Part shown: piece by piece, positions 27,553 to 30,500 of the stretch
How positions within the stretch are numbered: the stretch's first letter is position 1
Layout of the letters: every line of letters begins with the position of its first letter
Source: Nematostella vectensis
Lineage: Eukaryota
Length of the DNA: 64,000 nt
Direction: 5' to 3'
Assembly: GCF_932526225.1 (NCBI RefSeq)
Contig: NC_064037.1
Coordinates: 3,184,996-3,248,995 of the forward strand
Position numbers and translations under genes: made by a program
The notes under the pieces: generated by a model
What the model was told of the DNA's origin: nothing
What the model saw: only the letters and a program-made list of their open reading frames with translations
Databases searched by the model: none

Positions 27553-30500
27553 GTTGGTGTATTCAATAATTAAATTATTTCTCATTTGTGATGTCAGTTC
27601 TCATTTGGGCCTAAATGTCAAAATCTCTGAAATTGGATCAATAAAAATCTGTTAGGCTAAAATATGTGCAGGTTAAAAAAAGACATTTTTTTATGTATGT
27701 TATGAAACTCAGTGCGAGTGACAAGGTGAAATAGGATGTCTCCCTGATCACTTGCTAGAATAATAATACTCCTCCTGCAGTCAAGGCTGTGCTACATTGA
27801 CTTTCTGACCTCTAGAAACTTCTGTATGGTATTTTTAACTCTTCCACTGGATTGACTACTGTTCTCTACACCTTGTGGTTGACCAATGAGCATGGCATTA
27901 GTATAGTCCCTGTTTAGGGAACCCTGTGTTCATTATGAATATCATGGATGGGATGTCAGTATTCTTAATAACAGGAAACTTGTCACAGGACTTTTCTAAA
28001 CACATAATACTCAAACTTGGATTTTGCAGGACTGTCTCCTTTATGTTCTTCCAATTATCAGATGTAAAGCAAAATCAAAACTAAAAATGACTGCATTATT
28101 GAAAGCTCATCAATATTTCTTTTGTATCCAAAGGTTATTCTTGGACCTGAGAAGATGATCACAGTGCCACCAAGGCACTACTGCATTGTGGAAAATCCTT
28201 GCCTACGTGACAAGGATGGGAAACTTGTCCTGGACGACTATGGCCAAATCAAGCTACGACATGCTGATCAGGTTAAATTAGAAAAAAAAAGAGAAGGAAA
28301 AATAAATGATGGCAGAATTAAACTTTTTACTTCCTGTTATTTTAGGATATCCGCCTTGCCCAAGACCCCTTCCCCCTCTACCCTGGCGAGGTTCTTAAAC
28401 AAGGAGTGACAGCTCTAAGAGTGGTTGTGGCTAACTCAGCCTTGCGCCTTAGGGCTGTGCTAGACTTCGAGGATGCATCAGGAGAAAAAAGAGTTGCTGG
28501 TGATGAGTGGCTGTTTGAAGGACCAGGTACAGTACCATGTTACAGGCTTGACCAGGTGTGTACAGTGCCAAATTATAGAATACCAGGTATGTACAATGCC
28601 ATACTACAGGATGGACCAGGTATGTACTATGCCATACTACAGGATGGACCAGGTATGTACAATGCCATACTACAGGATGGACCAGGTATGTACAATGCCA
28701 TACTACAGGATGGACCAGGTATATGCCATACTACAGGATGGACCAGGTATGTACAATGCCATACTACAGGATGGACCAGGTATGTACTATGCCATACTAC
28801 AGGATGGACCAGGTATGTGCAATGCCATACTACAGGATGGACCAGGTATGTACAATGCCATACTACAGGATGGACCAGGTATGTACTATGCCATACTACA
28901 GGATGGACCAGGTATGTACTATGCCATACTACAGGATGGACCAGGTATGTGCAATGCCATACTACAGGCTGGACCAGGTATGTACAATGCCATACTACAG
29001 GATGGACCAGGTATGTACTATGCCATACTACAGGATGGACCAGGTATGTACTATGCCATACTACAGGATGGACCAGGTATGTACTATGCCATACTACAGG
29101 ATGGACCAGGTATGTACAGTGCCAAATTATAGAATACCAGGTATGTACTATGCAATACTACAGGATGGACCAGGTATGTACTATGCCATACTACAGGATG
29201 GACCAGGTATGTACGATGCCATACTACAGGATGGACCAGGTGTGTACAGTGCCAAATTATAGAATACCAGGTATGTACTATGCAATACTACAGGATGGAC
29301 CAGGTATGTACTATGCCATACTACAGGATGGACCAGGTGTGTACGATGCCATACTACAGGATGGACCAGGTATGTACTATGCCATACTACAGGATGGACC
29401 AGGTGTGTACTATGCCATACTACAGGATGGACCAGGTATGTACTATGCCATACTACAGGATGGACCAGGTATGTACAATGCCATACTACAGGATGGACCA
29501 GGTATGTACAATGCCATACTACAGGATGGACCAGGTATGTACAATGCCATACTACAGGCTGGACCAGGTATGTACTATGCCATACTACAGGATGGACCAG
29601 GTATGTACTATGCCATACTACAGGATGGACCAGGTATGTACAATGCCATACTACAGGATGGACCAGGTATGTACTATGCCATACTACAGGATGGACCAGG
29701 TATGTACTATGCCATACTACAGGATGGACCAGGTATGTACAGTGCCAAATTATAGAATACCAGGTATGTACTATGCAATACTACAGGATGGACCAGGTGT
29801 GTACAATATGTACCACAGGCTGGACCAAGATATGCATAATGCTATGTTACCTGCTGGAATTGTTATATTGTCCATCGATAGATTTCTATGTAATTTTTTC
29901 ATGCTTTCCAGAGTCAGAAGAGGAATTGTTACAAACATTTCATTTACCTTGGTGTTAGGAGTAAGGGATGACATGGCCCACTTGCAATTAATAAAGTGTT
30001 TGTCATCTTCAGGTACCTTAATTCCAAGGAAGGAAGTCGAGATAATAGAAACTGTCAGAGCAACGGTCATCCAGCCTAATCAAGCTATCAGACTAAGGGC
30101 CAGAAGGGAGACCAGGGTAGGTTTAGCACTACTCATTTCCCCCCAGAGGCCACACGTTTTTCTTTGATAATTGGGGCAGGCCCAAAATCTTTGGAGATAT
30201 AAAAAAAATACTTTGGTTTTTACCTTTTTGTCTTATGGTTGTAATCGAATAATTGGCCTAAGAAAAGCATAATGGTCTAATTATCATATAAGTAAAACAA
30301 AGCTATTTTACTCCAGAAAGAACCTTAATGTTTTTTACCCATCCTAGGATCGTGATGGTCATATGCGAGTGACGGGAGAGGAATGGCTGGTTAAAAAAGT
30401 TGGTGCGTACCTTCCAGGTGCATACGAAGAAGTGGTGACGGTGGAGGATGCATTTGTTCTCACCGAGAAGGTCAGCTTCACCTTCAGCATCATCAACGGC

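Follow-up and report, generated by a model that had tools for sequence, protein, structure and literature searches.

A length-polymorphic minisatellite repeating the 5' splice site of MVP intron 3 in Nematostella vectensis

The third intron of the Nematostella vectensis gene for major vault protein (MVP) begins with a tandem array in which every unit carries a usable-looking CAG/GT (here and below, a slash in a sequence or between two positions marks a splice junction), and cryptic-donor use is therefore a legitimate question. A preliminary description of the locus had gone further, proposing a ladder of donors, each of which would add an in-frame linker of 11-aa repeats between MVP repeat domains and so give rise to isoforms of graded size. 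We analysed the array within a window, by which we mean the whole 64-kb stretch of DNA under study, and a neutral intronic VNTR, spliced out with the intron, emerged as the most likely reading. The literature on Nematostella minisatellites, major vault protein and tandem-repeat splicing yielded nothing on this locus. Positions are those of the window, and all features lie on its forward strand.

Anatomy of the gene, the intron and the array

The MVP coding region (27415..37462), delimited by a tblastn exon map, exon boundaries and spliced translation, comprises 17 coding exons. Its spliced translation with the first exon-3 donor, 854 aa in length, is identical to RefSeq XP_048582324.1/XP_048582325.1, so that the identity of the gene as MVP was borne out by both the exon map and the protein. 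A search with the MVP protein in which no Nematostella protein was among the matches gave a best match of 79% identity. An ORF for RNF146 neighbours MVP in the window.

Coding exon 3 (28346..28526) is of phase 1 and ends in GAAGGACCAG/gtacag. Splicing at its annotated donor, CAG/GTACAG (28524..28532), reproduces the RefSeq protein, and the same donor hexamer, GTACAG, opens intron 11 of MVP. The array-bearing intron, the third when numbered by coding exons, starts at 28527, as had been claimed, and extends over 28527-30012 (1486 nt), of which the array makes up most. Sequence 3' of the array is unique (29859..30012) and ends in the acceptor ...catcttcag/. Coding exon 4 (30013..30116) begins GT-ACC..., the G of the split codon being supplied by exon 3. 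This junction is codon 153, which lies within a Pfam Vault repeat match (residues 118-158) and not, as had been proposed, between repeat domains.

A tandem array is present at the place previously described, TRF delimiting it as 28541-29804 with a period of 33, 38.7 copies and 91% matches. The earlier estimate of about 38 copies agrees with TRF; the donors, however, number 40 CCAG/GT sites, i.e. the annotated donor and 39 downstream. The 33-mer has 33 matches in the window at ≤3 mismatches (0 expected), none of them elsewhere in the 64 kb, and the whole is a head-to-tail array, within an intron, of a unit in the 10-100 bp range. When aligned to the consensus unit, a first, diverged unit (28517..28551) spans the exon-intron boundary, made up of ~10 nt from the end of exon 3 and 25 nt of intron; lying in register before the GT, the exon tail GAAGGACCAG and the unit tail GATGGACCAG agree at 9 of 10 positions. 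At the opposite end, a similar alignment identifies a terminal degenerate unit (29825..29858) that has lost its donor (CCAAGATATG...).

The array core (28552..29824) consists of 39 units, each with CCAG/GT, and its donors are CAG/GTATGT in 33, CAG/GTGTGT in five and CAG/GTATAT in one; the perfect GTATGT donor formerly ascribed to every copy is thus confined to 33 of the 39 downstream sites, the annotated site being GTACAG. With the first unit as A, the unit types read ABCDCCECDFCDDGCDDDHIDJBIDKDLDCCMDDCDDHIN, and two types account for most of the 33-nt units. A length of 33 nt holds for the consensus but fails for unit 1 (29 nt), units 2, 19, 23 and 38 (31 nt) and unit 7 (28 nt). The last of these (28715..28742) has a 5-nt deletion and the GTATAT donor, and from here the donors beyond are out of frame. 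The 31-nt variant unit (..AGTGCCAAATTATAGAATA) does recur, albeit in four copies starting at 28552, 29106, 29236 and 29729, GTGTGT and GTATGT occurring in two copies each, and not in the three copies at 28551, 29211 and 29711 first listed; its first copy (28552..28582) brings in a TAG and a 2-nt frameshift. The higher-order structure that had been noted is also present, as a 130-bp block led by the 31-nt variant unit (29106..29235, units H-I-D-J) and its second copy (29236..29365, units B-I-D-K). The fourth variant unit and its I-type partner (H-I, 29729..29792) include a TAG at 29753. Both the second block and this H-I pair are missing from the allele of the 2007 assembly.

Allelic variation and origin of the array

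In the 2007 assembly (GCA_000209225.1, DS469678.1; locus L002), intron 3 measures 1424 nt and has 38 donors, compared with 1486 nt and 40 donors here. The two assemblies differ by 4-unit and 2-unit blocks in the array, and the 2007 allele also contains 32- and 34-nt units. The check for length polymorphism recommended in the preliminary description was therefore positive for both copy number and unit order, and the 38 donors and block rearrangements of the 2007 assembly lead us to class the array as a VNTR.

The one orthologous locus examined (L001, whose protein, P0015, is 80% identical to MVP over the aligned part) has the same phase-1 intron, starting CCAG/GTATGTAT, and lacks the 33-bp array. 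The start of this intron nevertheless resembles the repeat units (donor GTATGTA). Among ~60 relatives, read-through of the same junction meets a stop within ~70 codons; at least seven read GPGM.. (GT ATG..), and none of these read-throughs contains the repeat peptide.

On these grounds we infer a mutational mechanism which would begin with tandem duplication of a segment of ~33 bp at the exon 3/intron 3 junction, comprising ~10 nt from the 3' end of the exon and the ~23 nt that open the intron. Because the duplicated segment would have spanned the junction, the 5' splice site recurs in every unit. Later growth and reshuffling would have proceeded by unequal exchange or replication slippage, as the degenerate edge units, the 130-bp higher-order blocks and the 2- and 4-unit differences between alleles suggest.

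The setting is rich in minisatellites. In its 64 kb the window contains ~20; several lie in MVP introns, and these too vary between the assemblies. Two other MVP introns, 9 and 16, contain arrays which repeat the acceptor. There are hints here that splice-site capture by minisatellites may be common in the Nematostella genome.

Donor use and coding potential

Taken together, we consider it probable that the array is a lineage-specific, length-polymorphic VNTR of MVP intron 3, derived from the exon-intron junction and removed with the intron, and that its pseudo-donors are silent. In the pre-mRNA, the exon-proximal donor (28526/28527) would be joined to the acceptor (30012/30013), whereupon the whole array would leave with the intron. 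The 39 downstream donors would then be pseudo-sites without a coding role, most of which would, if used, cause a frameshift or a premature stop. That they are silent we infer from gene models and from human F7 IVS7, where a 37-bp VNTR has its first monomer over the exon 7/IVS7 boundary and the most upstream donor alone is used, even against stronger pseudo-sites (PMC1557585). This precedent for splice choice is mammalian, and cnidarian rules for such arrays may differ.

Leaky use of the first pseudo-sites, at a low level beside the annotated donor, appears rather unlikely, though it is the likeliest of the alternatives. By our count, CAG/GTATGT matches the U1 consensus CAG/GTAAGT at 8/9 positions, with +5G, whereas the annotated CAG/GTACAG matches at 6/9, without +5G; computed U1 duplex energies are nearly equal (-9.7 and -9.4 kcal/mol, respectively). 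As the downstream copies match the consensus better than the annotated site, donor competition is plausible. There are also human precedents: two pseudo-sites are used in IFI6 and two in CBS (PMC1557585), and ABCA7 retains one 25-bp unit and has its splicing affected by VNTR length (PMC5954066). Against these stand F7, LMNB2 and PDGF, in which the authentic site only is used (PMC1557585).

The consequences of leaky use would depend on the donor. Donor 2 (28555/28556, CAG/GTGTGT) lies at +29 nt, and its use would shift the frame towards a stop 12 codons on, the product probably being lost to nonsense-mediated decay. Donor 3 (28586/28587) lies at +60 nt and would add 20 aa inside Vault repeat 3. 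This +20-aa protein, the one insertion form looked up, is absent from a collection of 15e9 sequences, and MVP clusters at 90% with an 850-aa model and a 40-aa fragment but with nothing longer than its own 854 aa. RefSeq and JGI gene models are both on the first donor, the 2007 JGI model EDO36139.1 reading FEGPG/TLIPRK, i.e. the first donor joined to exon 4; gene models, however, favour the homology-consistent junction and omit minor isoforms. Annotation thus weighs little against leaky use, since minor or decay-sensitive isoforms would go unannotated. Were such leakage to occur, array length could modulate productive MVP output, a consequence compatible with an intronic VNTR.

A functional U1-binding array, whose 39 donors would recruit U1 snRNP along the intron and serve as a regulatory element instead of as splice sites, with an effect on splicing efficiency, the suppression of premature polyadenylation or nuclear retention, we judge improbable. 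Its appeal lies in CCAG/GT, which is invariant in 40/40 units of this allele and 38/38 of the 2007 allele, in contrast to five other, variable positions. Such invariance, however, is what homogenisation would produce in a young array. The array is, moreover, missing from the examined orthologous locus, its copy number and order vary freely between alleles, and many unrelated minisatellites occupy neighbouring introns and intergenic DNA.

Further roles found no support. Pyrimidine content in the 20 nt upstream of the unit CAG/GT is 45%, against a mean of 68% (55-85%) at 16 real MVP acceptors; a recursive splice site is rejected, there being no polypyrimidine tract upstream of the AG/GT. Pairing is possible between the donor and a CAUACU that lies 8 nt downstream of it (-5.7 kcal/mol per unit), yet five array pieces folded with z-scores of -0.5 to +0.7 relative to shuffled controls. 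Because no piece out-folds these controls, masking of the donor by RNA structure is not supported, and a structured RNA family was likewise rejected, Rfam giving 0 matches at gathering score over the whole window.

The ladder of in-frame isoforms fares worse, and we regard it as very improbable. Several observations do invite it: the consensus unit, 33 nt long, has no stop in any of the three forward frames, CAG/GT is present in 39/39 copies, and the exon frame of this allele is open for 449 codons. The ORF lengths reported over the array (449, 219, 179 and 295 aa) were exactly reproduced. Absence of stops is, however, a property of the consensus unit only and not of the array, which has five (28549, 28576, 29130, 29260 and 29753), at least one per forward frame. 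It is owing to these stops that the ORFs are of the above lengths and are not three of full length, the TAG at 29753 being the one which closes the exon-frame ORF. A stop-free unit is, in any case, nothing unusual: 14% of random 33-mers drawn from the window are free of stops in all three forward frames when tandemly repeated. Other arrays in the window also produce ORFs, of 355-604 aa.

Nor is the frame preserved. In this allele, donors 3-7 and 24-38 preserve the frame and meet no stop; a frameshift would follow from use of donor 2 or of any of donors 8-23, and donors 39-40 are preceded by a TAG. Contrary to the assertion that any downstream donor would be in frame, this holds for 20/39 here and for 5/37 in the 2007 assembly (donors 3-7 only), leaving 19/39 and 32/37, respectively, out of frame or past a stop. 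The exon-frame long ORF is itself interrupted in the 2007 allele. Every indel in the array is a non-multiple of 3, and four of the five variable positions alter the amino acid in the exon frame, by our reading of the alignment columns. Even where the frame is kept, the insert would not be the pure 11-aa repeat envisaged, as it would have a different 20-aa start and, for donors 24-38, would run through all three unit frames. The insertion point, too, would fall inside the Vault repeat at 118-158.

Searches for the predicted peptide were equally unproductive. A 409-aa array translation, spanning all three unit frames, has no match among 5.8e9 predicted proteins, the repeat peptide has no Pfam match, and the 449-aa exon-plus-array ORF is not on record by exact look-up. 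Annotated MVP contains no insertion. A translated VNTR was hence rejected, the frame being kept neither along the array nor between alleles and the peptide being absent from annotated MVP. The array bears no coding signature, and nothing found suggests that the repeat encodes protein. The locus does offer a caution for gene prediction, in that the array gives rise to an open frame of 449 codons which is joined to a real exon without a break.

A transposon-borne satellite insertion, or an assembly artefact, is scarcely credible: nothing specific speaks for it beyond the Helitron-associated tandem arrays described for some cnidarian genomes, whereas the same array stands at the same place in two independent assemblies, in register with the last 10 nt of the exon and with units that match the GTATGTA donor of the relative, and neither flanking inverted repeats (27900-30400) nor dispersed copies of the unit were found, the latter in the window or, by exact scan (0 matches), in JGI metagenome contigs.

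If the array is a neutral intronic VNTR, vault biology is probably unaffected; the array would most likely leave with the intron and the protein would be the canonical 854-aa MVP. The interest of the locus would lie rather in splice-site choice. Its 39 repeated donors outnumber those of the examples listed in PMC1557585, and the annotated site departs further from consensus than the pseudo-sites do. Two sequenced genomes differ in the array, and its host is a laboratory organism for which RNA-seq is abundant and CRISPR works. By virtue of donor number, donor match to consensus, polymorphism and host, the array could test whether the positional 5' splice-site rule of F7 is ancient in animals. 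In this cnidarian, a consensus-poor donor faces 39 better-matching copies at 33-nt spacing, and the annotated mRNA uses the first donor only. Tentatively, and with the odds against it, we put forward that the locus, should this use be borne out in RNA or should array length prove to tune a frameshifted, decay-prone fraction arising from donor 2, would constitute a natural, polymorphic and genetically tractable non-mammalian test of the rule that the most upstream site wins (oriented scanning).

Comparison with known arrays

The arrangement is already known from boundary minisatellites in human F7, IFI6, CBS, ABCA7, LMNB2 and PDGF. Human CEL, with its 33-bp VNTR, and MUC1 exemplify a different class, that of exonic, translated and frame-preserving arrays. 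The Nematostella array resembles these in having a stop-free unit whose length, 33 bp or 11 codons, is divisible by 3. It differs in being intronic and missing from the annotated protein, and in having its frame broken by 28-, 29- and 31-nt units. The features of the F7 IVS7/IFI6/CBS/ABCA7 type, namely overlap of the first monomer with the boundary and copy-number polymorphism, are both found here; the donor is also repeated in downstream monomers, its copies differing from the annotated GTACAG.

The minisatellite of IFI6 (6-16) reportedly has a unit of 12 nt, and hence every pseudo-site is in frame. In intron 2 of this human gene, the array lies directly after the exon with a donor per unit, as in Nematostella, and has 25 pseudo-sites compared with 39 here (Turri et al. 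1995, as reported in PMC1557585 and PMC4526556). Constitutive use of the nearest two pseudo-sites gives three mRNAs (PMC1557585, PMC4526556). In Nematostella, by contrast, the unit is 33 nt, the frame is broken by indels and no insertion isoform is annotated.

The 25-bp VNTR of human ABCA7 intron 18 (PMC5954066) and the minisatellite of CBS intron 13 (PMC1557585) begin at the GT of the exon donor. There, splicing at a cryptic donor leaves one unit in the transcript and puts it out of frame, and use of donor 2 (+29 nt) would do likewise here. VNTR length in ABCA7 is associated with splicing changes (PMC5954066). These human cases are founded on transcript and disease-association data, whereas the Nematostella locus is known from sequence and gene models.

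F7 (Borensztajn et al. 2006, PMC1557585) differs in having 5-9 copies and pseudo-sites that repeat the authentic site exactly; the Nematostella alleles have 40 or 38 donor copies, and the annotated GTACAG has diverged from GTATGT and matches the consensus more poorly. The splicing outcome is experimental in F7, in a mammal, and is deduced here, in a cnidarian. The two loci nonetheless share a boundary monomer, composed of 4 nt of exon and 33 nt of intron in F7 and of ~10 nt and ~23 nt in Nematostella. They also share a donor repeated in the intron, length polymorphism, and products from the most upstream site, as judged here by the annotated proteins.

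The MVP gene and its surroundings

The exon layout of the major vault protein (MVP) gene was obtained by tblastn with a human MVP sequence as query, which placed 17 coding exons from 27415 to 37462. Joining exon 3 (28346-28526) to exon 4 (30013-30116) within this layout gives a spliced reconstruction of 854 aa that agrees at every residue with RefSeq XP_048582324.1/XP_048582325.1 ('major vault protein isoform X1/X2 [Nematostella vectensis]'); the older JGI model EDO36139.1 shares the FEGPG|TLIPRK junction of the RefSeq protein. Among the 16 MVP introns, intron 3 (28527-30012, 1486 nt) is the longest, with about 85-90% of its length occupied by the 33-bp array.

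Elsewhere in the gene, the exon 10/11 junction (33313-33331 and 33612) offers two candidate donors 6 nt apart, CAC|GTGAGG and AGG|GTGAGT, the second of which agrees with RefSeq; the 2007 JGI model reads REGE----RDK here and is 4 aa shorter. A 50-bp direct duplication in two copies (37434-37533), found in the 2007 assembly too, runs from the last coding exon across the stop codon (..GGAACCTCACAATAA). A neighbouring single-exon ORF on the minus strand (8702-9538) carries RING and WWE domains and is 100% identical to Nematostella vectensis E3 ubiquitin-protein ligase RNF146 isoform X2, with a 32-nt G tract of 93% purity a short way upstream on the plus strand (9840-9871). By eye, two uninterrupted plus-strand ORFs of 338 and 401 aa (1449-2465, 42507-43712) resemble seven-transmembrane receptors, 23281-23829 (+) a DEP domain, and two short minus-strand ORFs (58140-58523, 60029-60388) immunoglobulin domains.

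Anatomy and length variation of the array

Tandem Repeats Finder reported a single array at 28541-29804 (period 33, 38.7 copies, 91% matches). Cutting the region at every CCAGGT gave 40 sites, the first of which (28523-28528) lies at the exon end, with the intron starting at 28527. Across the 64-kb window, the 33-mer CCAGGTATGTACTATGCCATACTACAGGATGGA was matched 33 times at three or fewer mismatches, always in the array, and 100 dinucleotide shuffles yielded no match. These three results bear out the existence and placement of the array as the preliminary description gave them. The claim that every copy carries a perfect CAG|GTATGT donor holds for 33 of the 39 downstream copies only, five others having CAG|GTGTGT and one CAG|GTATAT; the annotated exon-3 donor differs as well, reading CAG|GTACAG, a hexamer that (as GTACAG) also serves as the donor of intron 11.

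With unit types lettered A to N, the present allele reads ABCDCCECDFCDDGCDDDHIDJBIDKDLDCCMDDCDDHIN. Types D (15 units) and C (nine), one base apart, together account for 24 of the 40 units. The first unit, A, is a diverged copy of 29 nt; a 31-nt variant ending ..AGTGCCAAATTATAGAATA recurs as units 2, 19, 23 and 38 (starts 28552, 29106, 29236 and 29729); and unit 7 (start 28715) is reduced to 28 nt by a 5-nt deletion. A four-unit block of 130 bp occurs in two copies (29106-29235 and 29236-29365), and a degenerate, donorless copy (29825-29858) terminates the array 3' of the last donor-bearing unit. Unequal exchange in tandem arrays is expected to leave a homogeneous interior, higher-order blocks and degenerate edges, and the features seen here are what maintenance by this process would produce.

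A second allele was available in the 2007 assembly (GCA_000209225.1, DS469678.1), which has the same array in an intron of 1424 nt with 38 donors, against 1486 nt and 40 here. Its map, ABMDCCECDFCDDfCDDfcIdDHIDJDLDCCMDDCDDN, has neither the B-I-D-K block nor the terminal H-I pair but four other units in their stead, including a 32-nt and a 34-nt unit. The array is thus a VNTR, the two assemblies differing in both copy number and units, and the proposed check for length polymorphism is answered positively.

Such polymorphism is general across MVP introns. The 55-bp array of intron 11 (33874-33991) has 2.1 copies here and 5.3 in the 2007 assembly, the 81-bp array of intron 13 (35004-35400) 3.5 and 4.5, and the 71-bp array of intron 16 (36817-37345) 7.3 and 6.2. 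Units of the last contain a branch-point-like TTCTAAC and ..TGTATCAG|C, and its final partial unit (TGTTCTAACATGGGTATGGTTGTTACCCCAG|GTCAAA) provides the genuine exon 17 acceptor (37346). The 35-bp array of intron 9 (32901-33107, 5.5 copies, equal in number in the 2007 assembly) has the unit ACGTTCCTTTGCGTCTTTGCCTCAG|TCTAAGTCCC, combining a polypyrimidine tract with CAG; because its last unit (..TTGTTTCTTGCCTCAG|G) forms the genuine exon 10 acceptor (33108), that acceptor is present about five times upstream. Arrays in introns 3, 9 and 16 thus repeat a splice site in three of the 16 MVP introns. About 20 minisatellites lie in the window as a whole, including five large ones downstream of MVP: 38241-39824 (43 bp x 41), 39981-40375 (24 bp x 16), 46856-48571 (16 bp x 107), 52570-54357 (37 bp x 48) and 56555-57574 (30 bp x 34).

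Origin and coding potential

The repeat register reaches into exon 3, where the unit tail GATGGACCAG|GT and the exon tail GAAGGACCAG|GT share 9 of 10 positions. Since this part of the exon codes for the universally conserved EGPG, the repeat copies stem from the exon rather than the reverse. At the orthologous MVP locus of a relative (L001; protein identity 80% across the aligned part), the corresponding intron is likewise phase-1 and begins CCAG|GTATGTATCTG, and its roughly 660 nt contain no 33-bp array. In about 60 relatives, the reading frame runs through the orthologous junction to a stop within about 70 codons, with the repeat peptide past the junction in none of them; at least seven start GPGM.., that is, GT ATG... 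Together with the L001 intron start, this makes GTATGT the probable ancestral donor, kept by the repeat units; today's first unit resembles one from which 4 nt have been lost (GTATGTAC to GTAC). Judged by these comparisons, the array is to be regarded as lineage-specific. L001 has a (TCTG)n microsatellite at the orthologous intron start (6324-6354), right behind the donor GTATGTA, and a 31-bp minisatellite of ~19 copies farther along (11579-12190); repeat-rich MVP loci are thus not confined to Nematostella.

The array had been described as open in all three frames. This is true of the consensus unit alone; the array itself contains five stops (28549, 28576, 29130, 29260 and 29753), at least one in each forward frame, which delimit the ORFs of 449, 219, 179 and 295 aa. 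A stop-free 33-mer is unremarkable, 14% of random 33-mers from the window being open in all three forward frames, and ORFs of 355-604 aa cross other arrays of the window (604, 590 and 489 aa in the three open reverse frames of the 16-bp array, 355-364 aa in the 30-bp array), so long ORFs across arrays are generic here. Five positions vary among the 33-nt units and, by our own reading of the columns, four of them alter the amino acid in the exon frame. The translated array matched no Pfam family and nothing among 5.8 billion proteins. Nothing indicates that the array is protein-coding.

The further claim that any downstream donor would keep the frame stands for 20 of the 39 (donors 3-7 and 24-38, whose added length is a multiple of 3) and fails for the other 19, owing to the 29-, 31- and 28-nt units and, for donors 39-40, to their position beyond the TAG at 29753; in the 2007 allele only donors 3-7 would preserve it. 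By computation, donor 2 (+29 nt) would bring a stop 12 codons past the junction and donor 3 (+60 nt) would add 20 aa. Nor would such an insertion fall between MVP repeat domains: the exon 3/4 junction, at codon 153, is within the Pfam Vault repeat match (residues 118-158), in a region that aligns with the solved two-domain fragment 1Y7X.

Donor choice and known boundary-spanning minisatellites

Most likely, the exon-proximal donor is used and the whole array would leave with intron 3, a reading supported indirectly by a pair of independent gene models, by the intact and conserved ORF of 854 aa and by the unconserved frame of the array. A caveat is that the pseudo-donors are the better match to the U1 consensus (8/9 with +5G, against 6/9 without +5G for the annotated donor, by our own count); the computed duplex energies are close (-9.7 vs -9.4 kcal/mol). 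Precedents, from which our estimates for the alternatives are drawn, point both ways. In IFI6, CBS and ABCA7 splicing also takes place at the first one or two pseudo-sites (PMC1557585, PMC4526556, PMC5954066), and use of donor 2 or donor 3 at a low but detectable level is a possible, if rather unlikely, outcome here; against it, human F7 intron 7 is spliced exclusively from its most upstream site, and strengthening the downstream pseudo-sites does not change this (PMC1557585). On the same precedents, the ladder of isoforms envisaged in the preliminary description seems very improbable. Recursive splicing at the unit AG|GT is unlikely because no polypyrimidine tract precedes it (pyrimidines make up 45%, compared with 68% on average at the 16 real MVP acceptors). 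Regarding other roles, the array had no Rfam match and no flanking inverted repeats, and RNA folds of its pieces did not exceed shuffled controls in stability (z between -0.5 and +0.7).

The original observation was real and well placed, while several of its details were wrong and the open frames were over-read. A literature search found no published description of this array, which may have modest value as a natural experiment in splice-site choice. In structure it is an ordinary representative of a documented type of intronic VNTR with a predicted splicing behaviour: its tandem unit is within 10-100 bp, the first unit straddles the exon-intron boundary, the donor recurs from unit to unit and array length is polymorphic. 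Human F7, IFI6, CBS, LMNB2 and PDGF carry arrays of this donor-repeating kind (PMC1557585), with ABCA7 a later example (PMC5954066). Compared with the examples in PMC1557585, the MVP array has more pseudo-sites than any (39), its first site has diverged from the rest, and its host is a cnidarian.
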